Shown here one piece after another: positions 2,433 through 16,818 of a DNA stretch of 17,320 bases. Location of the stretch: the IMG/VR virus record IMGVR_UViG_3300044641_000519. One strand, 5' to 3'. Position 1 is the stretch's first letter; every line of letters starts with the position of its first letter. The notes under the pieces were generated by a model. The model did no database searches, had not been told where the DNA came from, and saw only the letters and a program-made list of their open reading frames with translations. This DNA comes from a virus (Duplodnaviria > Heunggongvirae > Uroviricota > Caudoviricetes). A program made the position numbers and the translations under genes.

Positions 2433-2858
2433 TTAGTCTTGAAAGATGTCAAATGATAACACTCCATCAGGACATAAATTATTTTTTACTGATAAAGGAA
2501 CACTTAATTGTACAGTGGTTGCATTTACAGCTGAATATGTTCCAAACGCTCTAGTTTCTTCATTACTATTAAGAAGATCAATTAGTTCAGTCATATTTGC
2601 TGCACCTTCTTGTGTAAAAACTGTAGATATATCTTCTTCATCACATATCATTATAACAGAGACAAACGTTAAAGGAAATGCTGCTGGAATAGTATCTGTT
2701 ATCAATGTAGGAGCAGGATTACAACACTCGTTTGCATCTATCTCTTGCCAGTTACCTACTTGTGGTTTGAATCTTTGTAAGATCAAACTACCTGCAATGA
2801 CACGTCCTGTACCATCGTAACGTACATATGCTTTTAATCTATTATTGCTATTTGCCAT
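2433..2858 (-). CDS. Module-B protein, long form (conserved N-terminal module + ~90-aa globular domain)
   Basis: N-terminal RLKAYVRYDGTGRVIAGSLILQRFKPQVGNWQEIDANECCNP is paralogous to the N-terminus of 2871..3122. Confidence 0.85.
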   Translation of the reverse strand: MANSNNRLKAYVRYDGTGRVIAGSLILQRFKPQVGNWQEIDANECCNPAPTLITDTIPAAFPLTFVSVIMICDEEDISTVFTQEGAANMTELIDLLNSNEETRAFGTYSAVNATTVQLSVPLSVKNNLCPDGVLSFDIFQD

Positions 2859-2870
2859 GTTTATTTAAGT

Positions 2871-3122
2871 TTAAGTAGGTTGAGTAGTAGTTGTAGTAGT
2901 AGTAGGAGTAGCAGTCGTAGTAGTAGTTGTTGTACTTGTACTTGTGCTTGTACTACTTGTAGTAGTTGTAGTAGTTGGATTGCAGCATTCATAAGCTGGA
3001 ATCTCTACCCACTTACCCACTTTTGGTTTCTTTCTTCTTAAGATTAGGCTGCTTGGAACGATTCTTCCAGTACCATCAAAGCGTACATAAGCTTTGAGAG
3101 GGCGATTGTCAATTGAGGCCAT
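2871..3122 (-). CDS. Module-B mini-protein with poly-Thr mucin-like tail
   Basis: RPLKAYVRFDGTGRIVPSSLILRRKKPKVGKWVEIPAYECCNP followed by 34 residues, 30 of them Thr/Ser. Confidence 0.85.
   Translation of the reverse strand: MASIDNRPLKAYVRFDGTGRIVPSSLILRRKKPKVGKWVEIPAYECCNPTTTTTTSSTSTSTSTTTTTTTATPTTTTTTTQPT
2874..2975. repeat. Degenerate GTA/GTT trinucleotide tract encoding poly-Thr/Ser
   Basis: gtagttgtagtagtagtaggagtagcagtcgtagtagtagttgttgtacttgtactt... on + strand; mixed ACN codons on the coding strand. Confidence 0.9.
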
Positions 3123-3124
3123 AA

Positions 3125-4141
3125 TTAATAATTTATATTATATTTTGTTTTTAATTCCATTAATTGTGTAAGGTAGTAATGATTAGCATGCTTTTTAGAT
3201 GTTTCATCATTTAAAACCTTATCTAAATGTGTATCTAGAAAAGGATCTTTACCAGTGTGGTATGCTCCCTTGTAGAAAGCAGGATATCCCATACTAGTCT
3301 GTCCTGTAATTCCTGCGTTATGTAATATAGTTGTTCTCTCTAGTTTCTCTATAGGATCTGAAGACCAACAGAATTCCATTTCAGGAATATTCTTTGTCTC
3401 TTGTTCTCTAAGCCAAACGTTCCATAACACAGCCCACATATCTGCACACCAGCTTTGAAACCCTTTATTCTCATCTTTAAAGAACTCTTTGTTTATGTTC
3501 TGAAGGTAGACACGTATTAATATACAGTCATTCATCACCTTCTTCCAGAAATTAGCATCTATGTTCTTAAGGAAGTATTGAGCTCCTCCTGAATGATCAT
3601 TGTTAGCTTCAGCTATCTCTCTTGTTATACCCACTAAGCTTGTAAGCTCAGCTAAGACATCTCTAGTTTGGTACTCTTCCACCTTATCGAATAAGACATC
3701 TCTTAATTTACTATCAAAATATGAAGCATTGATGTAGCTGTTTGTGTCAGATAGATAGTTTATATCATCATCTTTAAACTTGTCAACATCAAATTTATCT
3801 GTAAAGATTACGTCACAGTCACAGTAAAACACTGCTTTGGTAACCATATCAGGATTGTCCTGGAAATATCTCATTAAGCAATAAGGACGTAGAATAGGAA
3901 TATAAACTCCTAAATACTGACTTACGTCTCCTGAATCCTTGTAGAAAGCAAACTTTGCTTCAGGATACAGTTCCATGATCTTCTCCCATTGTCCATTGTA
4001 TTCTCTAAAACTAGGTGTGTACACTAAAACAATTGCCTTGTCTGAATGTCCAAGCTTCTTCAAGCTTTCCAACCATAGATGTACCTGCCATGTGTAGTAT
4101 ACATCATCTGGTTGTGCACAGATAAATTTAAGATCCTTCAT
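3125..4141 (-). CDS. GT-A fold glycosyltransferase, HPAT/peptidyl-serine galactosyltransferase (GT95/GT96)-like
   Basis: Start moved to MKDLKF (ATG 4141, 338 aa). DxD motif in VFYCDCDVIF; motifs YYTWQ, YIPILRPYCL, GGAQYFL, WCADMWAVLW and ILHNAG are ordered like those of plant HPAT/SGT1 enzymes (Y..WQ, Y..NKP, W..EMY). Confidence 0.65.
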   Translation of the reverse strand: MKDLKFICAQPDDVYYTWQVHLWLESLKKLGHSDKAIVLVYTPSFREYNGQWEKIMELYPEAKFAFYKDSGDVSQYLGVYIPILRPYCLMRYFQDNPDMVTKAVFYCDCDVIFTDKFDVDKFKDDDINYLSDTNSYINASYFDSKLRDVLFDKVEEYQTRDVLAELTSLVGITREIAEANNDHSGGAQYFLKNIDANFWKKVMNDCILIRVYLQNINKEFFKDENKGFQSWCADMWAVLWNVWLREQETKNIPEMEFCWSSDPIEKLERTTILHNAGITGQTSMGYPAFYKGAYHTGKDPFLDTHLDKVLNDETSKKHANHYYLTQLMELKTKYNINY

Positions 4142-4167
4142 ATATGTAGTTTGTTGGTTTCTCTTTA

Positions 4168-4341
4168 TTAAGGAGCAGGTGTAGTGGTCGTAGTAGTTGT
4201 TGGTGCCACTGTAGTTGTGGTTGTTGTTGTAGACGCTGGAGGATGAGCTGTAACTTGTGTTAAATATTCCAATTGTTTGGATATCTGCCAAAGTAAATTA
4301 TCTGTTGTACTCCAACCTATTTGTCTTGATGGTATTGCCAT
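4168..4341 (-). CDS. Module-A mini-protein with poly-Thr tail (57 aa; not in ORF track)
   Basis: MAIPSRQIGWSTTDNLLWQISKQLEYLTQVTAHPPASTTTTTTTVAPTTTTTTTPAP*; N-terminal ~25 aa nearly identical to the start of 4346..5104. Confidence 0.9.
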   Translation of the reverse strand: MAIPSRQIGWSTTDNLLWQISKQLEYLTQVTAHPPASTTTTTTTVAPTTTTTTTPAP

Positions 4342-4345
4342 GATA

Positions 4346-5104
4346 TTATCCTATTTGTGTTACTGTTAAAATTATTGATGGTATATCTGGATGAACAGGA
4401 GCGACTCCTACTGGTTCATGTGCAAGTGTTACAGCATTATCCACGTTACTATCTATATGCCAAGCCAGTTGAAATGTATTTCCTGCACCAGCATCTACTA
4501 AGAAGTTCCAAGCAGCTACAATATATACTGAGTTACCTGGGAATGATATATAACTAGCAGAAGATGGCACATCTACACCATTTTTTCTTAACCATATTGT
4601 TGCTCTTGTAGCACTATTGCCAGTAGTACTTACCATCTGAGCACTAAATTGTATATTATATTTTCCAGCGTTTGCTACAGTAATTAATGTAGGATTACTA
4701 GAACCATCGTTTGTTATACTTACACCATTACTCAAATCTGTATTACCAAACTTCATAAACAATACAGTAGCACGTGGTCCAGTTTGATCAGTTACATCAT
4801 AAAACGAACCATAATAAAGACTAGATGCTCCACTAATACCAGATGTACCAGAAAACCCTGTTGTACCTGATGTACCAGCTTGACCTGATGTACCAGCTGT
4901 TCCAGCTGCCCCACTTGTACCTGATGTTCCAAAGGTAGCACCACTAGTACCACTAGATCCTGTAAGTCCAGAAGTACCTGAAGAGCCAGAGCCTCCAGAT
5001 GTACCACATGCTACTATACAACCTATCCCTTCTATCTGTTTAGAGATTTCCCACAACAGGTTATCAGTTGTGCCCCATCCTATCTGTCTACTTGGTATCG
5101 CCAT
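4346..5104 (-). CDS. Fibre/decoration-like protein: module A + Gly-X-Y (GTS) collagen-like stalk + C1q/TNF-like beta-sandwich head
   Basis: MAIPSRQIGWGTTDNLLWEISKQIE; 20 Gly-X-Y triplets; C-terminal YGSFYD...GKYNIQFSAQ...IWLRKNGVDVP...AAWNFLV...PSIILTVTQ typical of C1q/BclA-CTD-like heads. Confidence 0.75.
   Translation of the reverse strand: MAIPSRQIGWGTTDNLLWEISKQIEGIGCIVACGTSGGSGSSGTSGLTGSSGTSGATFGTSGTSGAAGTAGTSGQAGTSGTTGFSGTSGISGASSLYYGSFYDVTDQTGPRATVLFMKFGNTDLSNGVSITNDGSSNPTLITVANAGKYNIQFSAQMVSTTGNSATRATIWLRKNGVDVPSSASYISFPGNSVYIVAAWNFLVDAGAGNTFQLAWHIDSNVDNAVTLAHEPVGVAPVHPDIPSIILTVTQIG
4823..5005 (-). repeat. Gly-X-Y (mostly Gly-Thr-Ser) coding repeat
   Basis: Residues 34-94: 8 triplets, a single Phe insertion, then 12 triplets; no Pro. 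Confidence 0.9.
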
Positions 5105-5111
5105 AATCTAA

Positions 5112-5141
5112 CAAAGATATGTTACTTTTTAATATTAACAA
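5112..5141 (-). promoter_or_regulatory. Bacteroidota RpoD-type promoter (TTG-N19-TATCTTTG)
   Basis: Minus strand TTG (5141-5139), 19-nt spacer, TATCTTTG (5119-5112); 7 nt upstream of ATG 5104. Confidence 0.7.
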
Positions 5142-5197: not shown

Positions 5198-6406
5198 TTA
5201 TAAATTTACCTTGCTTCCAACCACTGCAAAGAACAACATTGGTATGCTAGGATTTGTGCTAACACTAGTCTTTAGTCCTGTGTTAAACTTGAATCTTTTT
5301 GTAATTGAGTAGTCCATATTGAAGCCTGTAAGGAACATCATATCTTCACTTATTTCAAAGGTGTTATCCTTTATTCCATATGTTACAGGGCTCCCAGAGA
5401 TATATAGGTCAGGAGATATGGTCAGTCTTCTGTTTATAGTGAAAGGTTTTGTGTAAAACACTAACAATGAATGAGTTGTAGTGAACTGTTGTTCTGACTT
5501 CTGAATACTCACTGTAGCATTTATACCTGTCACTCCCCACTTTCCTAGTGGATATATTTGTGCATAGGTTAGGAAACCAAATGTATTTCCAAACGCATGC
5601 ACTAATGTGGCACCTGTGTTATCTATTCTATATAGTTTACCTTCATCAAAGTTCATTTTGGTATAGCGTCCACTAAGAGCAAACTGCTGTAGATTACTCC
5701 ATACCATACCTGTGAGTCCCCAACTTACATCCCCAGCCATAGATGTTTGTGATATACCTGATGTAACTATGAGCTGTACTGAGTTATCTAATGTTTGTCC
5801 TGCTGTAAGATCAGAGTTAAATAGTATAGGGTTCATTTTAGCTTGACCTTTTGCTCCCCCTTTACCACCTGACTTACCCCCTCCCCCCTTGCTTTCAGAT
5901 TTGCTTTCAGATTTAGATTCTCCTGAAGAACTTTCAGAAGAGCTAGACTCAGAACTTCCTCCTCCACCTCCACCACCACTGTCTCCTCCTGAGCTTGTAA
6001 CAGATCCACTAGCACTTGATGCTGCAGCACCTGCAGCTGAGCTAGCAGCAGAAGAGGCAGCTGAACTTACAGCCCCACTAACAGCACCACTTACAGCTGA
6101 TGAGACAGCAGTTGCTGTAACAATTGTAGCAGTTTGTGCTGCTTGAGCCACTGAACACGCAGAAAACTTTTTATATTCTTCGAAAGCTTGACTGATCCAG
6201 GCTTGAAGAGCCCCACTATATACATCACTAGCTGTAAAACTTTTAGATTTATTATAAATAACAATAGTGGTAGAACCAGTAATAGGTATACTAAAGACAC
6301 TTGTAACTTTTGTACAAGGATCTGTCCAAGTTTGTATAATGGTTTGAGAATACCCATATAATGGTAGTATAACTACTGTTATTAGAATAAATATAAACTG
6401 TTTCAT
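5198..6406 (-). CDS. Exported protein: signal peptide, small 2-Cys domain, Ala/Ser/Gly-rich linker, predicted outer-membrane beta-barrel
   Basis: Signal peptide ending YGYS-Q; C-terminal ~210 aa of amphipathic strands rich in G/Y/F, ending FFAVVGSKVNL. Confidence 0.65.
   Translation of the reverse strand: MKQFIFILITVVILPLYGYSQTIIQTWTDPCTKVTSVFSIPITGSTTIVIYNKSKSFTASDVYSGALQAWISQAFEEYKKFSACSVAQAAQTATIVTATAVSSAVSGAVSGAVSSAASSAASSAAGAAASSASGSVTSSGGDSGGGGGGGSSESSSSESSSGESKSESKSESKGGGGKSGGKGGAKGQAKMNPILFNSDLTAGQTLDNSVQLIVTSGISQTSMAGDVSWGLTGMVWSNLQQFALSGRYTKMNFDEGKLYRIDNTGATLVHAFGNTFGFLTYAQIYPLGKWGVTGINATVSIQKSEQQFTTTHSLLVFYTKPFTINRRLTISPDLYISGSPVTYGIKDNTFEISEDMMFLTGFNMDYSITKRFKFNTGLKTSVSTNPSIPMLFFAVVGSKVNL
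5840..6154 (-). repeat. Low-complexity coding tract (AVSS/AVSG/AASS, poly-Gly, SSES, ESKS repeats)
   Basis: Residues ~85-189 of the 402-aa protein; includes a tandem tgctttcagatt duplication near 5890-5915. Confidence 0.85.
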
Positions 6407-7119
6407 TACTTTGTGAAGATACCTTTCTTCACCATTCTATCCAAGATTCTAGCACAAGCAATATCTAGAGCCTTCTTTGTAGCAATAGATATAGTTGATT
6501 GATTAAATTTTACAGGATCTAGACTTGCGTCTGACAATCCTGAAGTTTCTTTAGTTGTTTTAGCATCTCCTAATCCAGAGCCAGAGAACACAACACCTGT
6601 CTCAGCATCTGTAAACCTCACCTGAAGACCAATGCGTGTCACCATAAGCTGGCTTGTTGCTAGCTTTGAGCTCACTGTTTCATCTTCAGAGATAGAATAG
6701 TCATAGCATTCAATAGTAACAAAGTATTTAGCTAAGTTTATCTTACCACGTCCATCTAGTTTGTTCTCAGATATTCCAGCAGCTGATGCTTGGAACTGCT
6801 TTACCATTCTGTTCTTAATCTCAGTCTTATCTTCAGTGAACTTAAATCTATTTAGATTCTCTAAGTATTCCATAGATATATTAGCCACCCCTAATCCTAC
6901 ACGCTTCTCTTTAAGCTCAGGATACATTTCATACATTTCATCTGATATACCACACTTCAGGATTTGGATAGGAATTTGAGGTCCTTCGTAATCCAGGAAG
7001 TCAGAAATGTCAATAGACTTCTCAAAGCTAGCTTTATACTGCTCTGTAGAAGTCTTTGCCAATTGACTATTTACTGCTCCAGAGAACAGTAAACAGCCTA
7101 TAAGAATTAAATATTTCAT
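6406..7119 (-). CDS. CsgG/HfaB-like exported protein
   Basis: Signal peptide ending AVNS-Q; LGVANISMEYLENLNRFKFTE...GKINLAKYFVTIECYDYS...TRIGLQVRFTDAETGVVFSGSGLGDAK resembles the CsgG pattern (RF.++ER; G.+..A.Y++; +.+.+R++D..TG.++). No lipobox seen. Confidence 0.7.
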   Translation of the reverse strand: MKYLILIGCLLFSGAVNSQLAKTSTEQYKASFEKSIDISDFLDYEGPQIPIQILKCGISDEMYEMYPELKEKRVGLGVANISMEYLENLNRFKFTEDKTEIKNRMVKQFQASAAGISENKLDGRGKINLAKYFVTIECYDYSISEDETVSSKLATSQLMVTRIGLQVRFTDAETGVVFSGSGLGDAKTTKETSGLSDASLDPVKFNQSTISIATKKALDIACARILDRMVKKGIFTK

Positions 7120-7718
7120 TATTCTTTGATTTTACCACAGTGAATACACTCATAGTCTCCATCATGATCTACATCTGCAAACACATGATCACATTGTCTG
7201 TGAGCTTTGATTTCATGTTCAAGCTTAAGTTTCTCCATCTCTTGCTCATGTTCTTGCTCATCAATCTCAAGAGCTTGTCTGTGCTCTTGTTCATCACGAG
7301 CGATCTCATGCTTTTGTTTATTCTCTGTAACAGCTAAGTCTCTAGCTGCAGCAGCACCTTGGACAAATGCATCAGGGATAGTTGGAGCTACAGGTTTATT
7401 GCTCTCTTTCATGTCATTGGTGTGAGACAGTGTAGTACCATCTTCCTCATCCATCTTCTGTACAAGCATCTTATCTTTGTCAGTATCACTAAACCAGTAG
7501 TCTATAATCTTACCATAGCTACCAATGAAGGCACCTAACATCAATAGTAATAACTCCTTCCATTCTGCAGCAGCAGAAATGTTATTGTTAAGAGCCATGA
7601 ATATACCAGCTATAATTAATATAAATGATCCTAATACTAAGGCAGTGATATACCACCTACGTAACATCATTGATCCTAAAAGTTCTTTAAAACCTGAAGG
7701 CTGTTGAGGCTTGTCCAT
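7119..7718 (-). CDS. Two-TM membrane protein with acidic coiled coil and C-terminal Cys/His motif
   Basis: Hydrophobic segments WYITALVLGSFILIIAGIFMAL and LLLLMLGAFIGSYGKIIDYWF; DEQEH repeated twice; ends CDHVFADVDHDGDYECIHCGK. Confidence 0.8.
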   Translation of the reverse strand: MDKPQQPSGFKELLGSMMLRRWYITALVLGSFILIIAGIFMALNNNISAAAEWKELLLLMLGAFIGSYGKIIDYWFSDTDKDKMLVQKMDEEDGTTLSHTNDMKESNKPVAPTIPDAFVQGAAAARDLAVTENKQKHEIARDEQEHRQALEIDEQEHEQEMEKLKLEHEIKAHRQCDHVFADVDHDGDYECIHCGKIKE

Positions 7719-7819
7719 ATGTTTGCAATTGTTTCTTGGTTATTTTTTACTAGCTCAGCTTTCTTTACACCAGATCTCCTAGATCTTTGAGCTTTTGGTT
7801 TGTTTTTCTTCTGTGCCAT
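7676..7819 (-). CDS. 47-aa basic peptide (not in ORF track)
   Basis: MAQKKNKPKAQRSRRSGVKKAELVKNNQETIANIWTSLNSLQVLKNF*; starts 3 nt after the upstream stop, fills the gap and overlaps the next start by 43 nt. Confidence 0.6.
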   Translation of the reverse strand: MAQKKNKPKAQRSRRSGVKKAELVKNNQETIANIWTSLNSLQVLKNF

Positions 7820-7822
7820 GGC

Positions 7823-8125
7823 TTACCATTTTGGAGCTTCTTCTTTAAACTCATCTCCTTCTTTCTTCTTTACAGGAGCAGGTTTAGCTGCAGCTTCTTT
7901 TTCTTTAATGATGACAGTCTTACCACCACCTGCAGCTTGTTGTTGAGTTTGTGAGTTAGTAATGTTAATTACTGGAGCTGCTTGTTGTACAGGAGCAGCT
8001 TCATCACCACCTCCTGTTAATTTATTAGTTACAAAGCCACCTACACCTAGTGTAACTGTGCTTACTAACGTTATGATAATTCCTTTAAAGGATTTACCAG
8101 TTGATTCTTCTTGTTCTTCTGCCAT
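7823..8125 (-). CDS. Single-TM protein with Gln/Ala/Pro-rich disordered tail
   Basis: IIITLVSTVTLGVGGFVT hydrophobic segment followed by AAPVQQAAPVINITNSQTQQQAAGGG. Confidence 0.8.
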   Translation of the reverse strand: MAEEQEESTGKSFKGIIITLVSTVTLGVGGFVTNKLTGGGDEAAPVQQAAPVINITNSQTQQQAAGGGKTVIIKEKEAAAKPAPVKKKEGDEFKEEAPKW

Positions 8126-8130
8126 GTTAA

Positions 8131-8487
8131 TTATTTTTTAATAGTTATTTGACGTTTGTATTCTTTACCAAAGATATCAATAAGTGTAACTGTGTAGTCT
8201 CCAGAATTAATATCTGAGTAGTCTAACTTCTTGATTACCATATTGTTATCAGCTGTAAATCCTGTAGCATATTTAACATCTCCCTTTAGATCAATTAACT
8301 GAATAGCATATTTAGCCCCTTCAGTTACACTTAATGTAAGTGTTATTGGTCCCTTTGTTATCACTGGTTCCACTCTTTCAATAGCTGTGGAGGTAGCTAT
8401 CTTACCCAAGCTAATCTCAGGTGTTGGTTGCACTTTTGTACAACTTGATATTATAAAAACGATACAGCAGATTATTATATTTCTCAT
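8131..8487 (-). CDS. Lipoprotein consisting of a single T9SS type-A CTD-like domain
   Basis: Lipobox IISS-C; PVITKGPITLTL...IQLIDLKGDVK...KKLDYSDINSGDYTVTL......KRQITIKK fits the T9SS CTD pattern (P....+.+ / +.++D+.G / +D+S.L..G.Y.+.+ / .K+++.K). Confidence 0.7.
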   Translation of the reverse strand: MRNIIICCIVFIISSCTKVQPTPEISLGKIATSTAIERVEPVITKGPITLTLSVTEGAKYAIQLIDLKGDVKYATGFTADNNMVIKKLDYSDINSGDYTVTLIDIFGKEYKRQITIKK

Positions 8488-8488
8488 A

Positions 8489-10186
8489 TTAAAAGTTGTT
8501 ATATCCTGTTAATTTAATTTGTGTTGTGTTCAAGTTGATTCCTAATTGGTTACCAGACATATCTGAAGCATCCATGTTAGAAGTTACTTTGATATATGAG
8601 TTGATACCTAATCCATTTTGTAATGTAGAAAACAAAACTTTGAATGGTATACCTTTTGTGTAAGGAGTTTTTAATTCTTTATCTACAGCTCCAAATTTAA
8701 TTCTGCCTGGTCCACGTGAAGCAAATACTAACCACACTGGTACATCTGTTGTAACAGACTCAAACTTCACTTTGGTTGGGTCATATACAAACTCAAACTG
8801 CAGTCCTGATAAGTTAGCACCTTTGCCATCTACAGCAACTGGTACAGTGAATTCGTTACTAGTAACAGTGATGTTATTCAAACTCACATCTATAGATGTA
8901 ATAGGGTTAGGTGTATTCACAACTGTTGATTTTAAACTGAAGGACTGTATTGTTCCATCAGGCTTAACTACCTGTGAGCTATGTGATCTATTAATGTCTC
9001 CAGGAATTAAGTACTTAAGGTTTAAATCTTGAGCCACTGTAGATGTCTTAAATCTAGTTCCATATAAGTTAGCCTGCTTCCAATATGCTGGTGTTAATGT
9101 GTCGTATTCACTATCCAATAACATAGGAATATTATACAATGTTTGACCAGGTGTAGCTTTTACCACTGTATCAACTCCAATCACTTGTGCAAATAAAGCT
9201 GTAACATCATTGCCATCAAATGCTTTGTTCATTATAATGTCAGAAGCAATCCAGCTAGCCCCTGTCTTTATATTTACATTAGTAAATGTACCATCTAAGT
9301 TCTGTTTAATAAACTCATTTTGAGCTGCTGTATAATCAGAGATGGTCACAGCTTTATTTAAGTAAGAAGGTATACTATCTGTAGGTATTGTAGCAAACAC
9401 ATTATATACAGTGTTAGGAGTTAGTTCAGATCCCAAGAAGAATGTACCATTGTTTGCTGGTACCATTTGTGCTTTGACAATACCTGTAGCTGAATCTACA
9501 AACATTATTTTAGGAACTATACCATTTATATCTACGTATCCATTTACTAATGCATTAGAACTAGGTATAGGTGTTATCCAAGAATTGCGAGGCTTAGGCA
9601 TAAATACTGTAGACAAATTGTTATACTGATTAGTATAAGCTTGTGCAGCATTAAAGTATACAGAGTCATAAGCAAATCCTGCACTTACATTAACCACTTT
9701 AAATCTTAAATATGCAAGATCACCATCTACAAGATTAGCAGTAGAAGCAGTGTTAATCCATATACGATTAATAGCTTTGTTAGAGGACTGGTTATAATTG
9801 TATTGAGCATAGTTGAAATTTGTGAGACCATTTGTAGTTGTGTTGTTTGGATTCTTTACAAACGTATATCCAGGATAGTACTGGTTTTGAAACGTAGCTG
9901 TAGCTCCTTGAGGAAGAGCTGAACCTTGATTACCTGCTTTTGGAAACACAATGTCTATAAAACTAATAGCAGTGTATTGGTGTTCAAAGTCTAAGTAGAA
10001 AGATCTTGCTGAAGAACCATTATTCTTATAAGCAAGAGCTAACTGCACTGTATCTCCTTTTGCAATCACCCCACCACGTATATCAACGTTTTGTTCTGTA
10101 GGTGTGAGCCTTAGTTCTGTTATTTGTCCGTAAGAAAATGTTACAATTATTTGAAAAATTGTAACAAAAAATAATAGTTTATTCAT
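8489..10186 (-). CDS. Exported cohesin-domain protein with degenerate dockerin-like motifs
   Basis: Signal peptide ending FSYG-Q; C-terminal FTVPVAVDGKGANLSGLQFEFVYDPTKVKFESV is a classic cohesin signature; N-terminal GDTVQLAL...GDLAYLRFKV is also cohesin-like; central SDIIMNKAFDGNDVTALF and PGDINRS are dockerin/EF-like. Confidence 0.7.
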   Translation of the reverse strand: MNKLLFFVTIFQIIVTFSYGQITELRLTPTEQNVDIRGGVIAKGDTVQLALAYKNNGSSARSFYLDFEHQYTAISFIDIVFPKAGNQGSALPQGATATFQNQYYPGYTFVKNPNNTTTNGLTNFNYAQYNYNQSSNKAINRIWINTASTANLVDGDLAYLRFKVVNVSAGFAYDSVYFNAAQAYTNQYNNLSTVFMPKPRNSWITPIPSSNALVNGYVDINGIVPKIMFVDSATGIVKAQMVPANNGTFFLGSELTPNTVYNVFATIPTDSIPSYLNKAVTISDYTAAQNEFIKQNLDGTFTNVNIKTGASWIASDIIMNKAFDGNDVTALFAQVIGVDTVVKATPGQTLYNIPMLLDSEYDTLTPAYWKQANLYGTRFKTSTVAQDLNLKYLIPGDINRSHSSQVVKPDGTIQSFSLKSTVVNTPNPITSIDVSLNNITVTSNEFTVPVAVDGKGANLSGLQFEFVYDPTKVKFESVTTDVPVWLVFASRGPGRIKFGAVDKELKTPYTKGIPFKVLFSTLQNGLGINSYIKVTSNMDASDMSGNQLGINLNTTQIKLTGYNNF

Positions 10187-10644
10187 TATAGTAGTTTGTT
10201 AACCAATGAGTTACATGCTTTCTTTAAAGCTGTGGATAGATTCTGTTGGTTAAATTTACCTCCCTCATCTATCAATAAGGTGGACATACTTGTTTCATCT
10301 GCAGACTCTTCTATGAGAGCCTTCTTAATCACCTTACCATTTTCATCAATGATAGTTCCATATAATCTGATAACTACTGACTCTTTGTTCTTATGCATCA
10401 CAGAAAAACTAGACTGTGTTTTCAATACGTCTAAGTAGACAATATCAATATCTAATCTTTTGTTTGAGTTGTGATCAATGTCATAGTTTTTATCCTGTAG
10501 GATTTCTTCTACAATGTTCTTTACACCAAACTCTAGTTTGCGATTGCCTGCAACAGCACCAATCTTCACCTTATTGGTAACATTACCAATAGCTATAGAT
10601 GGTGTTTGCCACCACAGTGATAATATTAATAATAGATGTATCAT
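10186..10644 (-). CDS. Short CsgG-like exported protein (paralog of 6406..7119)
   Basis: Signal peptide ending SLWW-Q; RKLEFGVKNIVEEIL vs RVGLGVANISMEYL, and KFNQQNLSTALKKAC vs KFNQSTISIATKKALDIAC. Confidence 0.7.
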   Translation of the reverse strand: MIHLLLILSLWWQTPSIAIGNVTNKVKIGAVAGNRKLEFGVKNIVEEILQDKNYDIDHNSNKRLDIDIVYLDVLKTQSSFSVMHKNKESVVIRLYGTIIDENGKVIKKALIEESADETSMSTLLIDEGGKFNQQNLSTALKKACNSLVNKLL

Positions 10645-10781: not shown

Positions 10782-11381
10782 TTATGTTAATAGTGAAAAA
10801 TACTCTTTGAAATGCTTGATACGATCAGCAAGACCAATTGTACCACCATTTACTCTTTTAGTAATCATTGTTACAGCAGCATCTGTAGCTCCTGTATCTG
10901 CAATCTTATTCAATCCATTCTTACTCCAGAACCAAGCAGCTGATGCTAATGCAAACTCTGTAGCTACAAGATCAGGAGTCTCTTCAATTGGTTTGCCTAT
11001 AGACTTACCAAATGCTGTATAGTTATCACGTCCAGTTAATTGAATGTATCCTCTACCTCTAAACTTAAAGCCATCACCACTAGCTTCATTACCATTACCC
11101 ATTCTACCACCATACACTCTATTAGCAATCTTCTGTGGTTTCTTAGCATAGTCAAGAGCTATAGCTTCACTAGGGAAGTATTTCTTGAATATACCCTGCA
11201 GACCTTTGGCTGAGTAGTTTAGGTTTTCATTAGTGATTCTAAATCCACCAGACTCGTGACCACATTGTGCTAGGAAATGAGACAAGCGTAGGGGTGTATT
11301 CACTCCAAACTTATCTTGTATCCCAGGTATTTGTTCAATCACTTTATCTGGTACGTGACCTTTTAATTTATTTAGATCCAT
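10782..11381 (-). CDS. Glycoside hydrolase family 19 endolysin
   Basis: RLSHFLAQCGHESGGF, ENLNYSA, ANRVYGGRMGN, GFKFRGRGYIQLTGRDNY, ASAAWFW, TKRVNGGTIGLADR are GH19 phage lysin motifs. Confidence 0.93.
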   Translation of the reverse strand: MDLNKLKGHVPDKVIEQIPGIQDKFGVNTPLRLSHFLAQCGHESGGFRITNENLNYSAKGLQGIFKKYFPSEAIALDYAKKPQKIANRVYGGRMGNGNEASGDGFKFRGRGYIQLTGRDNYTAFGKSIGKPIEETPDLVATEFALASAAWFWSKNGLNKIADTGATDAAVTMITKRVNGGTIGLADRIKHFKEYFSLLT

Positions 11382-12822: not shown

Positions 12823-13191
12823 TTAGTAGGGCTGGTAGGATTTCTCCTCTACAAAGTCAGAGCCATACTTAATATTAATTTCTTTTTTAATATGTGCTCT
12901 TCTATCATTTAATCTGTAGACAGATCTAGCTAAGTTAACAAACTCTTCTCCAAAACTACTAGATCTTTCAAAGTCTCTTAGAAGGTCTTCCACCTTCCAA
13001 AGATTTTGGTTCACTTCAAGCAGTCTGTCTGTCAAAGGATCATGTAAGATTTCAGGATGTACAGCATCATTCAAATAATTTCTCTCTTTGAAAACATTAA
13101 CTAGTTTGTCTTTGTCTGTAATGTTCAAAGCTTTGATGGAAAGTATAGTCCATTTGTCTACTACTTCTCCTACAGAAACTTCAATTTTCAT
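12823..13191 (-). CDS. DUF6165-like helical protein (from recall)
   Basis: Start moved to MKIEVSVGEVVDKWTILSIK (122 aa); LW.VED.LR, F..LARSVY..ND.RA.IKKEIN...GS..VEEKSY match a family usually found beside glycosyltransferases. Confidence 0.75.
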   Translation of the reverse strand: MKIEVSVGEVVDKWTILSIKALNITDKDKLVNVFKERNYLNDAVHPEILHDPLTDRLLEVNQNLWKVEDLLRDFERSSSFGEEFVNLARSVYRLNDRRAHIKKEINIKYGSDFVEEKSYQPY

Positions 13192-13201
13192 ATCAAAATG
13201 T

Positions 13202-13232
13202 TTTGTTATTTTCAACAAAAATAGTAACTTTG
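13202..13232 (+). promoter_or_regulatory. Bacteroidota RpoD-type promoter (TTTG-N19-TAACTTTG)
   Basis: TTTG 13202-13205, 19-nt spacer, TAACTTTG 13225-13232; ATG of the GT9 gene at 13250. Confidence 0.75.
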
Positions 13233-13246
13233 TTTGAAATAACCAA
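13216..13246 (-). promoter_or_regulatory. Bacteroidota RpoD-type promoter (TTG-N20-TATTTTTG), divergent and overlapping
   Basis: Minus strand TTG (13246-13244), 20-nt spacer, TATTTTTG (13223-13216); upstream of ATG 13191. Confidence 0.6.
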
Positions 13247-13249
13247 CAA

Positions 13250-14176
13250 ATGAAACCAGTTTGTTTAAATCTGGAAGAATGCAATGGATTGGGTGACCTT
13301 CTCTGTGCCACCCCCACTATCAAAAAACTTCATGACTCCTATCAAAAAAAGATAACCATCATCTCTCAGATGCCTGAGTTGTTTAAGATGAATCCATATG
13401 TAGAGAAGAGTTATAAGAGCAGCTCTGTAGATATGACGTACATACAATGTAATTACATTGTACATAATTCATTCTACTTAGTAGGTAAAAAGGACGAGCG
13501 TGGTATAGAGATGAAGCACAACATGATGGATATCAGACAGTTCCATGCTATACATCTAGGATTTATGCTTACTCAAGATGAACTAGAGTGTCACTACAGA
13601 CCTATAGAACAACAAGTTAATCATATAGAAGGTAAGTATGCTGTGATACATCCTGTTAATAGCTGGCCTAATAGAACCTGGTCTCAAGATAACTGGCTTA
13701 ATTTAGTTGATGAACTAATCAAATGGGGATATAAAGTGGTAGCTGTGGGTAAGGATAGCTCTGAGACAGGGTTCTTTAATGTAGACAAACCTGTACATGA
13801 GATGAATGATAAGGTGATTAACCTGATGAATCAAACATCTATCTCTGAGACTTGGCACTTGATTAACAATGCTGCAGTTGTTATCACTATGGATAGTGGC
13901 ATCCTACACTTAGCAGGTACAACCAACACTAATATTGTTGAACTAGGCTCTCCTATCAATCCAGAGTTTCGTAGACCATATAGAAAAGAAGGCAAACATA
14001 TATACGTAAGAGGAGGATGTGGATTACATTGTTCATCCAATATGAAATATGCTCTTGAGTATTGGGACACTATAGACTCTGTGCAACCATTGATAGGATG
14101 TTTAGAGAAGAAAGAAACATTTGAATGTCATCCATCTGTAGCTCAGGTTATTCATTCAATTAATACCAACTTATGA
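13250..14176 (+). CDS. Glycosyltransferase family 9 (ADP-heptose:LPS heptosyltransferase-like)
   Basis: GLGDLLCATPTIKKL, VIHP...WPNRTW, LMNQTSISETWHLINNAAVVITMDSGILHLAGT are GT9 signatures. Confidence 0.88.
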   Translation: MKPVCLNLEECNGLGDLLCATPTIKKLHDSYQKKITIISQMPELFKMNPYVEKSYKSSSVDMTYIQCNYIVHNSFYLVGKKDERGIEMKHNMMDIRQFHAIHLGFMLTQDELECHYRPIEQQVNHIEGKYAVIHPVNSWPNRTWSQDNWLNLVDELIKWGYKVVAVGKDSSETGFFNVDKPVHEMNDKVINLMNQTSISETWHLINNAAVVITMDSGILHLAGTTNTNIVELGSPINPEFRRPYRKEGKHIYVRGGCGLHCSSNMKYALEYWDTIDSVQPLIGCLEKKETFECHPSVAQVIHSINTNL

Positions 14177-16818
14177 AAAAATTATTAATCATTACTCCTC
14201 ATCTATCAACAGGAGGAGCTCCACAGGTGACAGTTAATAAGATTGAACTACTTAAGGATAGCTTTGATATCATGGTGGTTGAATGGGAGTGTATAGCCTG
14301 GGCATTTGTTGTACAAAGAAATAGAATCATTAACCTTGTAGGAGATAAGTTTAAGTCTTTAGGAGAGAACAAGAAGACTGAACTGTTGGAAATTATACAG
14401 GAGTTCCAACCAGATGTAATATCTATGGAAGAGTTTCCAGAAATGTTTATGCCTGATGATGTCACAGCACAAATCTACCACAAAGATACACCATGGAAGA
14501 TAGTAGAAACTACACATGATAGTTCCTTCAGACCTGAGTGGAAGAGATGGGCACCTGATAGATTTATATTTGTTAGTCCTTATAACGCATTCAAATACGT
14601 CAACTTAGATATACCAATGGATATAATTGAATATCCTGTAAATAAGAAAGGACGTAATAAAGTGGAGATGCAAAACAAGTTAGGACTAGATCCTAGTTAC
14701 AAACACATTGTCACTGTAGGACTGTTCACTCCTAGGAAGAATCAAGCTTATGCTTTTGAAATGGCTAAAGAGCTAGAGAAATATAAGGTGAAGTTTCACT
14801 TCTTAGGTAACCAAGCTGGTAACTTTGAGTCTTATTGGAAGCCATTAATGCAGAATAAACCAGACAACTGTGTCATCTGGGGAGAGCGTGATGATGTATC
14901 TGAATTCCTACAGGCTTGTGATGTGTTCTTCTTTCCATCTAAGGGAGACAGAGGTAACAAGGAACTTAATCCAATAGCCATCAAAGAAGCTATGGAATAT
15001 GACATAGTTAAGTTAATGTATAACCTAGATGTGTATTGTAACAAATACAATGGTCAGAAGGACATGATGTATTTAACAGGTGACATAACTATTGATACAG
15101 TTAATCTTATGATAAGACTAGACCTAGATAGACTAGACGAGGAGTTAATCATCATAGGTACCTATCCTAATCTAAAGGAGCGTGTTAACTTAACTAAGAA
15201 AACCATAGAGTCTATGAAGTCTCTAGGTAGAAAGATTATGTTAGTCTCACACTACCCTGTAGACGATGAGATTCAACGTATGGTAGATTATTACATCTAT
15301 GATGCACACAACCCACTCACTCATCACAGCTATTACACAAAGTTTTATAATGATACTTCTAACTACTATGCTGAGATAAACATCAATGGACTTAAGGATA
15401 CCAATCAGTCTCTTACAGTGTTAACTAATATGTACAATGGATTTAAAGCTGCTAAACAGTTAGGATACAAACGTGTGTTCTATAATACATATGATGTTAT
15501 TGTAGATCTTAGAGACTTACAGATGATAGAAACATCATTTGCTTCTGGTAAGAATGCATACTTAGCTACACTTCCTACACCTATGGGTAAAGGAATTCAG
15601 ACTAATGGAATGATGTTTGATATAGACTACTTCCTTAATACATTTGATGACACAGCTGACGCAAAAGAATACAATAGAATCTGTGAGCAAATAGGAGCTC
15701 AGAACTTCTTAGAGGATTATCTATCAAAAAGAATCAATGATGATAATGTAGAAATAGTTACCAATGAGCAAGAAACATTACTAATCCATAGTGGCTTAGG
15801 CACATCTTCTAACAGTGAGTATTATTCTATTGTTCCAATTGTTGGAAAACCAAACAATTATATGTTCTATTTCTTTACATATAATGTAGACCACAGAACT
15901 ATATATGTTACTATAGGAGATGTAGACAAAAGAATCCAAGTGGCTAAGACTAGAGAATGGATGTATCCTTTTAAGTTTAATGGAGATCCAATTGATATAC
16001 AACTAGACTTCTACGATGGAGATCATTGCTACAAAATAGAGAAGTATAACCTAAACAAGAACAATCTAGATAAGTATCAAAGCACAGGTAGGTTTGAATT
16101 CAAACAGAAAGATAGACCAAGAATAAAATTAGTTCACATACAAACTACATTAAACGATGAAAGAGAACAAGCCAGTAGAGCATCCCTTGAACAAGTCAAA
16201 GACCATGGTTGGGAATACAGGTTACACCTTAACAAGCCCTATAAATCACTACCACCATCATACAACTGCATTAGACCAGATTGTGTTTCAATGGAACTCT
16301 TCAATGAACAGCAAGTTCAACAGTATGGTACTGCACTTACCCCAGCACATTATGGATGCTATCAAGCATTCAGAGATGCCATCCTAAGTGAATTTCATGA
16401 TTGTGATTTCTTAATAGTGTGCGAAGGAGATTGTATCATTGAGACAGACATACACAATTTCATACGAAAAGTTGAGGAATGTGCACACTTATTAGTACCA
16501 AACAACATAGAGTTTATGTCATTTGGTGATAAGGATACATTAGAACATGGCTGGCCTCAGAGCCCTGAGGTAAGAAAAATCAATGATGTAATGTATGAAA
16601 CCAACCACATTATTGGTTTACAATGCATCATGTTCCCAGCTCACATAGCTCCATGGTTAAAAGAAACATTACGTAAAGAACCTTGGGATGCTGCAGATAT
16701 GTATTTCAACATTATATTTAACAACCAAAAGATGGGTATTGTATATGAAAGACTCACCACACAAGCAGATGGGTTTTCATTAATAGACAACATGGAAAAA
16801 TCATTCATAAAGAAATGA
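14173..16818 (+). CDS. Multidomain glycosyltransferase: GT4-like GT-B + GT-A-like domain + GT25-like domain
   Basis: N-terminal STGGAP...TVGLFTPRKNQ...FLQACDVFFFPS...ELNPIAIKEAM (GT4); middle IIIGTYP...IMLVSHYP...YNTYDVIV; C-terminal HYGCYQAF...LIVCEGDCII...GLQCIMFP...AADMYF (GT25-like). ATGA overlap with the GT9 gene. Confidence 0.8.
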   Translation: MKKLLIITPHLSTGGAPQVTVNKIELLKDSFDIMVVEWECIAWAFVVQRNRIINLVGDKFKSLGENKKTELLEIIQEFQPDVISMEEFPEMFMPDDVTAQIYHKDTPWKIVETTHDSSFRPEWKRWAPDRFIFVSPYNAFKYVNLDIPMDIIEYPVNKKGRNKVEMQNKLGLDPSYKHIVTVGLFTPRKNQAYAFEMAKELEKYKVKFHFLGNQAGNFESYWKPLMQNKPDNCVIWGERDDVSEFLQACDVFFFPSKGDRGNKELNPIAIKEAMEYDIVKLMYNLDVYCNKYNGQKDMMYLTGDITIDTVNLMIRLDLDRLDEELIIIGTYPNLKERVNLTKKTIESMKSLGRKIMLVSHYPVDDEIQRMVDYYIYDAHNPLTHHSYYTKFYNDTSNYYAEININGLKDTNQSLTVLTNMYNGFKAAKQLGYKRVFYNTYDVIVDLRDLQMIETSFASGKNAYLATLPTPMGKGIQTNGMMFDIDYFLNTFDDTADAKEYNRICEQIGAQNFLEDYLSKRINDDNVEIVTNEQETLLIHSGLGTSSNSEYYSIVPIVGKPNNYMFYFFTYNVDHRTIYVTIGDVDKRIQVAKTREWMYPFKFNGDPIDIQLDFYDGDHCYKIEKYNLNKNNLDKYQSTGRFEFKQKDRPRIKLVHIQTTLNDEREQASRASLEQVKDHGWEYRLHLNKPYKSLPPSYNCIRPDCVSMELFNEQQVQQYGTALTPAHYGCYQAFRDAILSEFHDCDFLIVCEGDCIIETDIHNFIRKVEECAHLLVPNNIEFMSFGDKDTLEHGWPQSPEVRKINDVMYETNHIIGLQCIMFPAHIAPWLKETLRKEPWDAADMYFNIIFNNQKMGIVYERLTTQADGFSLIDNMEKSFIKK

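Follow-up and report, generated by a model that had tools for sequence, protein, structure and literature searches.

A phage glycosyltransferase gene flanked by genes for poly-threonine proteins: a candidate protein-glycosylation-and-display cassette

Why should a phage encode a glycosyltransferase between two sets of small genes whose products end in threonine tracts? This question is raised by a 17,320-nt stretch of DNA from a virus of the Caudoviricetes (IMG/VR record IMGVR_UViG_3300044641_000519; hereafter the window), in which five genes of the minus strand form a cassette at positions 2433-5104. In transcription order, these genes encode A-long, A-short, the enzyme, B-short and B-long, where A and B designate two unrelated N-terminal modules that each occur in a long and a short protein. 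An earlier note on this DNA had proposed that the enzyme glycosylates the poly-Thr tracts of its neighbors, and the five open reading frames (ORFs) on which it relied are all present, closely spaced, on the minus strand at the coordinates it gave. The arrangement greatly exceeds what chance would produce. We consider it fairly probable that the cassette as a whole is a self-contained protein-glycosylation-and-display unit of a ~115-kb freshwater Bacteroidota phage, in which Thr tracts are O-glycosylated, A and B serve as handles and the resulting brushes are displayed. That phages of this kind sugar-coat their own proteins is, more generally, very probable.

The first gene of the cassette encodes A-long (252 aa; 4346-5104), which is composed of the A module (5027-5104), a Gly-Thr/Ser-rich collagen repeat (4826-5005) and a BclA_C/C1q-like head (4349-4822). 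The A-short mini-protein (57 aa; 4168-4341) carries the same module followed by a T7-VAP-T7-PAP tail (4171-4233). The enzyme itself (338 aa; 3125-4141) is followed by the B-short mini-protein (83 aa; 2871-3122), whose B module (2976-3122) ends in ECCNP and precedes a 34-residue Thr/Ser tail (2874-2975). B-long (141 aa; 2433-2858) is the last gene and associates the B module (2715-2858) with a 93-aa alpha/beta domain (2436-2714) that is devoid of a Thr tract. The intergenic spacers within the cassette measure 4, 26, 2 and 12 nt, which fits a single operon. The ORF of the enzyme had been drawn from a TTG at 4291, but we place its start at the ATG at 4141 because the orthologues are uniformly 337-342 aa long and the longer frame overlaps A-short and is unconserved.

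We then analyzed the family and the fold of the enzyme. Pfam offered no family for the window enzyme or for 56 diverse homologues, apart from two unrelated sub-threshold matches (E ~0.007) in single members, and the enzyme profile yielded nothing significant against the sequences of the PDB. The PHROGs assignment is phrog_4417, an unnamed family of unknown function, which is nonetheless large (at least 768 clusters at 50% identity and >2,000 close relatives). The AlphaFold2 model, based on an alignment of 56 sequences, presents a mean predicted local distance difference test (pLDDT) of 97.4 and consists of a single Rossmann-like alpha/beta/alpha nucleotide-sugar-binding domain. A fold search of the PDB returned 235 chains at E ≤ 1e-3, and the best 50 of these 235 are all glycosyltransferases, mostly of the GT-A fold; the nearest are glycogenin (GT8), UGGT and alpha-1,3-galactosyltransferase (E ~1e-6 to 1e-5). 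Among Swiss-Prot models, ranks 1-9 are all occupied by plant or algal protein O-glycosyltransferases (template modeling (TM) score 0.52-0.61 over residues 2-335). The top match is the Arabidopsis peptidyl-serine alpha-galactosyltransferase SGT1 (E 6e-10; TM 0.61) and the others include the hydroxyproline O-arabinosyltransferases HPAT1-3, RDN1/2, PLENTY and NOD3, with GT8 and other GT-A entries ranking below this group. Finally, a DxD motif is found after the fourth strand ('CDCD'; 3812-3820), and its residues D108 and D110 do not vary among 56 homologues (31-47% identity).

Based on its predicted structure, the enzyme is a GT-A fold glycosyltransferase and sugar transfer is its predicted activity. 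The label given to it earlier is thereby confirmed by fold, although neither Pfam nor PDB sequences lend it support. We liken it to a priming peptide O-glycosyltransferase on the strength of its modeled fold. We did not file it in the CAZy families GT95 or GT96 because there is no match at the sequence level and the identity in structural alignments is 11-15%. No signal peptide or membrane segment was found in its sequence and the enzyme should therefore act in the cytoplasm before lysis. Two other assignments were considered. A DNA-modifying glucosyltransferase is ruled out by the fold class and by the gene neighbors, and no GT27 entry, as would be expected for a mucin-type enzyme, is present among the matches listed in the PDB and Swiss-Prot fold searches. 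Full-text searches of the literature returned no paper that deals with this enzyme family or with phage proteins bearing poly-Thr tails.

The earlier note had expected homologues of the enzyme to co-occur with Thr-rich proteins, and we observed this association in three independent data sets. Among cultured phages, 77 GenBank phage records contain homologues that tblastn detected at 26-36% identity, including phages of Enterococcus, Lactobacillus, Staphylococcus, Lactococcus, Clostridium and Chryseobacterium, among others. All eight of the cultured-phage loci examined contain a tract that codes for poly-Thr immediately upstream of the enzyme homologue. In several of them the tract belongs to a tail protein: it is the near-pure C-terminal Thr tail of the major tail protein gp50 in Enterococcus phiFL1A, a set of Thr-rich repeats in the C-terminal half of a 115-aa 'major tail protein' in Lactobacillus Semele, a Thr tail on the tail tube protein in Clostridium phiCTP1, a Thr run ending a tail protein in Staphylococcus vB_SpsS-DH5 and the T9-P end of a tail protein in Arcanobacterium TPWB06, the last two loci containing a second Thr-rich ORF as well. 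The tract forms the Thr tail of an unannotated 306-aa protein in Lacticaseibacillus R3.3 and a Thr run internal to a 429-aa protein in Chryseobacterium MA9V-3. In Enterococcus Planchet (locus L088, 2773-2890), a start-less -1 frame of ~40 mostly Thr residues lies between the stop codon of the capsid gene and the enzyme homologue, which is consistent with a Thr-tailed capsid variant made by frameshifting. The cultured relatives hence include cases where the glycosyltransferase gene stands beside the gene of a virion protein (tail tube or capsid) with such a C-terminal tail.

The same association was found in a second uncultured clade, for which we collected 84 loci around the relatives of two distant enzyme representatives. 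ORFs with a strict Thr tract number 0.207 per flank up to 500 bp from the enzyme and 0.000-0.020 per further 500-bp bin up to 4 kb, an enrichment of ~20-fold next to the enzyme. The tract ORF adjoins the enzyme in 29 loci, nearly always on its upstream side. The T7-coding runs of the window's complete relatives are concentrated at the cassette and the remaining ones are found in very large, probably structural, proteins, where they form inter-domain Thr linkers. Because Thr-rich neighbors recur in the three data sets and the GT-A fold of the enzyme lies near protein O-glycosyltransferases, we infer with good support that the tracts are its substrates.

The Thr-linker proteins of the complete relatives are probable further substrates. 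In relatives G001-G003 (loci L089-L092), they measure 504-1235 aa and their Thr/Ser runs link small C-terminal domains that contain Cys. Three of them, the largest (938-1235 aa), form a single orthologous family whose N-terminal part of ~800 aa is conserved.

To what extent is this arrangement conserved? We compared 80 IMG/VR loci whose enzyme is 67-95% identical to that of the window, 72 of which extend far enough downstream and 72 far enough upstream. The order A, enzyme, B is kept across the 80 loci. A downstream B gene is found in 72/72 loci, within 120 bp of the enzyme in 69 of them, and a B protein with a run of at least six Thr is encoded in 58/72. On the other side, 64/72 loci possess an upstream A gene; the A gene nearest to the enzyme is a short form in 54, of which 51 encode a run of six or more Thr. 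The long-short-enzyme-short-long mirror that had been described is true of the window, but its relatives conserve only the polarity, as their B side is variously short-short, long-short or a single long form. The A and B modules of five complete relatives are confined to the cassette locus. B-like modules are also found beside distant homologues of the enzyme (L173-L176 and a Saprospiraceae contig), down to ~35% enzyme identity. In Chitinophaga sp. YR573 (L180, 5037-5321), two paralogous enzyme copies in tandem precede a 94-aa ORF that comprises two B-like modules, each with a terminal Cys-Cys.

The A module is ~26 aa long and consists of a short strand followed by an amphipathic helix; in the window, Cys residues and the collagen repeat lie behind it. 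The B module is ~47 aa long, beta-rich in the predicted model of B-long (pLDDT 86 overall, 62-87 within the module) and ends in Glu-Cys-Cys. In an alignment of 34 B proteins, R13, D15, G16, P32, G35 and C45 are invariant and C46 is almost invariant. A tblastn search of 50,697 GenBank phage records with the A and B modules gave no match. The paralogous copies have diverged at synonymous sites while their protein sequence was kept, in agreement with the purifying selection reported in the earlier note. Over the first 26 codons of A-long and A-short, 14.8 of 15.5 synonymous sites and 9.2 of 62.5 non-synonymous sites differ (proportions pS 0.95 and pN 0.15), and the 41 aligned codons of B-short and B-long gave pS 0.72 and pN 0.20. 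The Thr tails are encoded by a mixture of ACA, ACT, ACC and ACG codons, which indicates that they are maintained as protein and not as a DNA microsatellite. Across relatives, the mini-proteins measure 37-97 aa and their tails end in conserved (A/V/P)(A/T)P-type termini.

Two further observations concern these modules. The 95% synonymous difference between the A copies (5027-5104 and 4264-4341) exceeds the saturation expected in AT-rich DNA, a weak signal given by ~15 sites, and this excess may reflect selection against recombination between neighboring repeats. Paired cysteines also mark the junction of module and payload in both families: Cys45-Cys46 in B-long (2718-2723), Cys46-Cys47 in B-short (2982-2987) and GCIVAC in A-long (~5005-5020). 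Speculatively, these resemble the interchain cystine knots found at the ends of collagen trimers.

Whereas the modules are conserved, their payloads are hypervariable, with lengths among relatives of 37-1295 aa for A proteins and 58-438 aa for B proteins. Payload domains include collagen, BclA_C, leucine-rich repeats (LRR), BspA-type LRR and Lcl_C, which are all adhesin-type and are often joined to B by Thr linkers. Relatives of the cassette at 88-95% were detected on contigs of four freshwater metatranscriptome libraries. One of these contigs (2331 nt) covers the 5' part of the enzyme gene with A-short and A-long, and a second one covers B-short, the enzyme and A-short. On the contigs from these RNA libraries, the payload of A-long is swapped from exactly 5029 and that of B-long from 2715, which are the ends of the modules, and the length of the B-short tail varies. 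Because the payloads are adhesin-type and are swapped exactly at the module ends, anchoring or oligomerization on the particle is the favored role of A and B, which would be virion anchor or oligomerization modules for display. Swapping of this kind is what is expected of N-terminal handles that stay fixed while their cargo is exchanged, by analogy with tail-fiber and decoration proteins. The proposal of the earlier note is partly supported: the case is good for enzyme and substrate, but the docking of A and B to the virion is a part that we only infer.

The collagen repeat of A-long is a genuine Pfam match, as had been noted (Collagen, residues 34-93; 29.3 bits against a cut-off of 27.2; E 7.5e-7). 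The 'C1q head' behind it is indeed C1q-like but is better named BclA_C-type: the window protein itself scores under the cut-off of this family (19.1 bits against 38; E 1.3e-3), and 19 of 42 A-long homologues match it (best E 4.5e-9). In a language-model feature atlas, the head is located near the C1q/BclA_C clusters (score 0.93), and A-long matches tail-fiber PHROGs. A sequence search for solved relatives of the head returned nothing significant.

The spacer on the 5' side of A-long measures 93 nt and a conserved 50-nt element at the head of the cassette ends there in TATCTTTG (5112-5119, minus strand). This box corresponds to the Bacteroidota-type -7 promoter consensus TAnnTTTG, which is found no more than 100 nt from the first A gene in 29 of 44 distinct upstream regions of relatives, relative to a background of 0.077 per 100 nt. 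We take it to be a putative promoter.

These results suggest the following mechanism. The 338-aa enzyme would be a soluble cytoplasmic GT-A glycosyltransferase that draws on a nucleotide sugar and on a metal bound by its DxD motif to O-glycosylate Thr (and Ser) runs. Its preferred acceptors would be the homopolymeric Thr tails and linkers encoded on both sides of it, and the Thr linkers of large structural proteins elsewhere in the genome would probably be acceptors too. A and B would constitute two unrelated N-terminal modules acting as fixed attachment or oligomerization handles, behind which payloads are exchanged by recombination, be they collagen with a BclA/C1q-like head, LRR, Lcl_C, small globular domains or a Thr tail alone. 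The mini-proteins would then represent 'anchor plus glycan brush' units that stand on the particle beside their adhesin-bearing siblings.

Homologues of the enzyme in bacteria bear on the nature of its acceptor. In ten Bacteroidota genomes (Chitinophaga, Sphingobacterium, Hanamia, Longitalea, Ferruginibacter, Mucilaginibacter and others), the enzyme domain forms the N-terminal part of proteins of 479-829 aa. In 6/10, a second domain comes after it, which is homologous to the part of the Chitinophaga protein that bears Glyco_transf_7C; Pfam itself confirmed this domain in two. The flanking genes encode a Peptidase_C39-ABC exporter (6/10), a LanC-like protein (7/10) and, in some loci, HlyD, and small ORFs with a double-glycine leader (…LKNVLGG) and Cys/Ser/Thr-rich cores are present in 3/10 loci. 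Judging from this gene content, the bacterial loci are clusters of the type that modifies ribosomally synthesized and post-translationally modified peptides (RiPPs). Their context therefore provides support, independent of the phage data, for peptides or proteins as the acceptors of the enzyme family. The loci of Chitinophaga, Hanamia, Longitalea, Ferruginibacter and Mucilaginibacter (L181, L183, L186 and L188-L190) may be an undescribed class of Bacteroidota glycosylated RiPPs.

Alternatively, it is possible that A and B are leader-like recognition handles of the enzyme instead of virion anchors. The mini-proteins would then be leader-plus-core glycopeptide precursors and their products would function away from the particle once the cell has lysed, for instance as decoys, matrix binders or signals. 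The RiPP-type clusters of the bacterial homologues, with their double-glycine-leader peptides, agree with this scenario, as do the small size of the mini-proteins (37-97 aa), their position directly adjoining the enzyme and the persistence of B-like modules beside it to ~35% enzyme identity, including B-long with no Thr tract. However, neither a leader protease, nor an ABC exporter, nor a LanC gene is present in the window. Moreover, Firmicutes phages carry Thr tails on tail-tube or capsid proteins that possess neither A nor B, and the enzyme therefore needs no handle. The same modules also bear large adhesin-type payloads (up to 1295 aa), and large proteins devoid of A and B contain Thr linkers as well. 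We consequently regard this scenario as unlikely.

Another explanation would be that the Thr tracts are mere flexible, protease-resistant linkers or tails and that the enzyme targets something else, such as a host envelope polysaccharide, another glycan or DNA. Inter-domain Thr-rich linkers are common in the large proteins of these phages, many members of the enzyme family are found in multi-glycosyltransferase clusters that resemble glycan-building loci, and the window itself contains further GT9-like and GT4-like genes (13250-16818). Yet the most common neighbors of the enzyme are mini-proteins made of an anchor and a tail, and a tail that joins nothing is no linker. The pairing of enzyme and tail also recurs in phages of Bacillota, Actinomycetota and Bacteroidota, whose hosts have unrelated envelopes, and the nearest folds are protein O-glycosyltransferases, not the DNA glucosyltransferases of phage T4, which adopt the GT-B fold. 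This explanation thus appears quite improbable.

Finally, the mini-ORFs are short, free of known domains and located in a region of frequent recombination, but it is very improbable that they are untranslated debris of payload exchange (truncated copies of the long genes), given that a Thr-tailed short A gene is the nearest upstream gene in 51/72 relatives, that the module sequence is kept despite saturated synonymous sites, that the tails are pure Thr with mixed codons and conserved termini, and that the spacing of 2-26 nt fits a co-translated operon.

We also considered a broader reading that joins some of these elements, and which we hold to be doubtful as a whole. A single family of peptide O-glycosyltransferases would be common to phages and Bacteroidota, with the phage mini-proteins as its viral 'handle plus core' substrates. 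A and B would act as orthogonal plug-in handles, bringing in the enzyme first and holding the product on the particle afterwards. A programmable mix of mucin-like glycan brushes and adhesin heads, set by recombination at the module borders, would be borne by the virion. By analogy with the collagen cystine knot, trimers would be locked by the invariant Cys-Cys between B and payload and by the Cys pairs behind A.

Returning to the cassette as a glycosylation-and-display unit with A and B as virion anchors, several observations weigh against it. The system is known here from genes and predicted structures alone, and the region of the window looks accessory (endolysin, lipoprotein-like genes), with no obvious head or tail module. 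In the second clade, 46/84 loci are without a strict Thr tract beside the enzyme and present shorter T4 runs or clusters with other glycosyltransferases, methyltransferases and radical-SAM genes, which indicates that poly-Thr is a strong but not universal neighbor. The most deeply conserved partner of the enzyme is B-long, which has no Thr tract and whose orthologues stand beside distant homologues of the enzyme in L174 and L176; something besides the Thr tail may therefore link B and the enzyme. Alternatively, B, at least, may interact with the enzyme itself; a predicted complex of the enzyme with B-short scored 0.01, which is evidence neither way. The RNA evidence consists of metatranscriptome contigs, for which DNA carry-over is possible, and these inform on presence only, not on strand, level or translation. 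Fold searches with B were uninformative: BFVD returned only uncharacterized phage proteins for B-long, the feature atlas gave no usable match, and the best result of VIA-align against 48,161 PDB representatives (Z 5.8; surface insertion domains of a phage sheath, a lytic polysaccharide monooxygenase and flagellin) is below the meaningful level.

The window has a GC-content of ~35% and nearly all its coding sequence lies on the minus strand as far as ~13.3 kb. Its phage genes comprise a GH19-type endolysin (10782-11381), PHROG matches and additional glycosyltransferases. The sequencing runs that contain this stretch are mainly lake and other freshwater metagenomes, and its nearest relatives are IMG/VR contigs of 100-119 kb, several of which are rated complete and two of which present terminal repeats. 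The homologues of the enzyme in prokaryote genomes all belong to Bacteroidota (15/15), and the best of them (66% identity) is part of the same cassette on a 112-kb contig binned with a Sediminibacterium metagenome-assembled genome. These observations suggest that the host is probably a freshwater member of Bacteroidota and possibly a member of the Chitinophagaceae.

Several genes around the cassette are worth describing. Directly downstream of it, on the minus strand (2013-2417), lies a Dps-like gene (DUF5856; phrog_858, 'starvation-inducible regulator'-like). Upstream, the minus strand encodes a 402-aa protein (5198-6406) for which we found no family match. Its N-terminus resembles a signal peptide, its C-terminal half is beta-rich and it contains a long low-complexity stretch rich in Ser, Ala and Gly. 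Four relatives (L014, L031, L046 and L177) possess ORFs of 402-430 aa in the same place, taken as orthologous from position and length, and in the first three the low-complexity part is Thr/Ser-rich. The minus-strand genes at 6406-10644 present signal-peptide or lipoprotein-like starts, an unusual cargo for a phage, and gave weak sub-threshold matches to a C-terminal sorting domain of the type IX secretion system (8131-8487), to cohesin (8489-10186) and to Lipoprotein_16 (10186-10644). The region 12823-16818 begins with a DUF6165 gene on the minus strand, followed on the plus strand by a GT9 heptosyltransferase-like gene (13250-14176) and by the gene of an 881-aa protein with a GT4 domain (14173-16818). 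The GT9-like, GT4-domain and DUF6165 genes are candidates for extending a glycan that the cassette enzyme would begin.

Because the enzyme family is large and spread over phages of many hosts (Enterococcus, Staphylococcus, Lactobacillus, Lactococcus, Clostridium and Bacteroidota), it may be common for virions to be sugar-coated. If true, this bears on phage adsorption, environmental stability, the immune recognition of therapeutic phages and the reading of virion proteomes. A poly-Thr tag and a single small enzyme would constitute an attractive minimal tool for site-directed O-glycosylation, and the two-anchor cassette suggests a natural plug-and-display system. The RiPP-type link suggests that Bacteroidota make a class of glycosylated peptides that has yet to be studied. 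The cultured phages that carry the enzyme make the central claim directly testable.

How does this cassette compare with known systems? Glycocins (sublancin with SunS, glycocin F) are made from small precursor peptides encoded beside a dedicated peptide glycosyltransferase. The bacterial homologues of the phage enzyme resemble them, as they cluster with a C39-peptidase ABC exporter, a LanC-like protein and double-glycine-leader peptides. In contrast, the phage cassette lacks an exporter, a protease and LanC, its modules also bear large folded payloads, and SunS-type enzymes presumably belong to another glycosyltransferase family. BclA of the Bacillus anthracis exosporium forms a collagen-like filament with a C1q-like head and is O-glycosylated on the Thr of its GXT repeats. 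Similarly, A-long presents a Thr/Ser-rich collagen repeat followed by a BclA_C-type head and is encoded two genes from a glycosyltransferase, and glycosylation of its collagen part is a possibility by analogy. A-long differs from BclA in being a phage protein with an N-terminal A module, and the enzyme family differs as well.

The O-glycosyltransferases of plant extensins and peptides, SGT1 (GT96) and HPAT/RDN/PLENTY (GT95), are the closest to the phage enzyme in fold over its full length (TM 0.59-0.61 over residues 2-335). SGT1 and HPAT-type enzymes are GT-A glycosyltransferases that add the first sugar onto hydroxy-amino acids of highly repetitive peptides. However, the identity is only 11-15%, with no match at the level of hidden Markov models. 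In addition, the plant enzymes are Golgi membrane proteins, whereas the phage enzyme is soluble and its presumed acceptor is Thr, not Ser or hydroxyproline.

To our knowledge, mycobacteriophages are the only phages for which the glycosylation of particle proteins has been experimentally documented. In the mycobacteriophages Che8, Corndog and Myrna, phage-encoded glycosyltransferases glycosylate C-terminal tails borne by the phage's own subunits of capsid and tail tube (Freeman et al. 2023, Cell Host Microbe 31:1216, as cited in PMC12619734). As summarized in that source, this is the closest described system, and the cultured relatives of our enzyme resemble it in encoding Thr tails on tail-tube or capsid proteins beside the enzyme gene, a likeness known here from genes alone. 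Relative to the mycobacteriophage system as it is outlined there, the enzyme belongs to an unnamed family that folds like plant GT96/GT95 and homopolymeric Thr tags would serve as acceptors. These tags are borne, in this clade, by two dedicated families of exchangeable mini-/maxi-proteins and not by capsid or tube. The neighbors of the enzyme in the window are fiber- or adhesin-like proteins, which would be located on the virion. The earlier view that no comparable phage system has been described must therefore be revised in the light of the mycobacteriophages, but part of it stands: the kind of system, phage self-glycosylation, is known, and what is new is the enzyme family, the acceptor tags and the display architecture.

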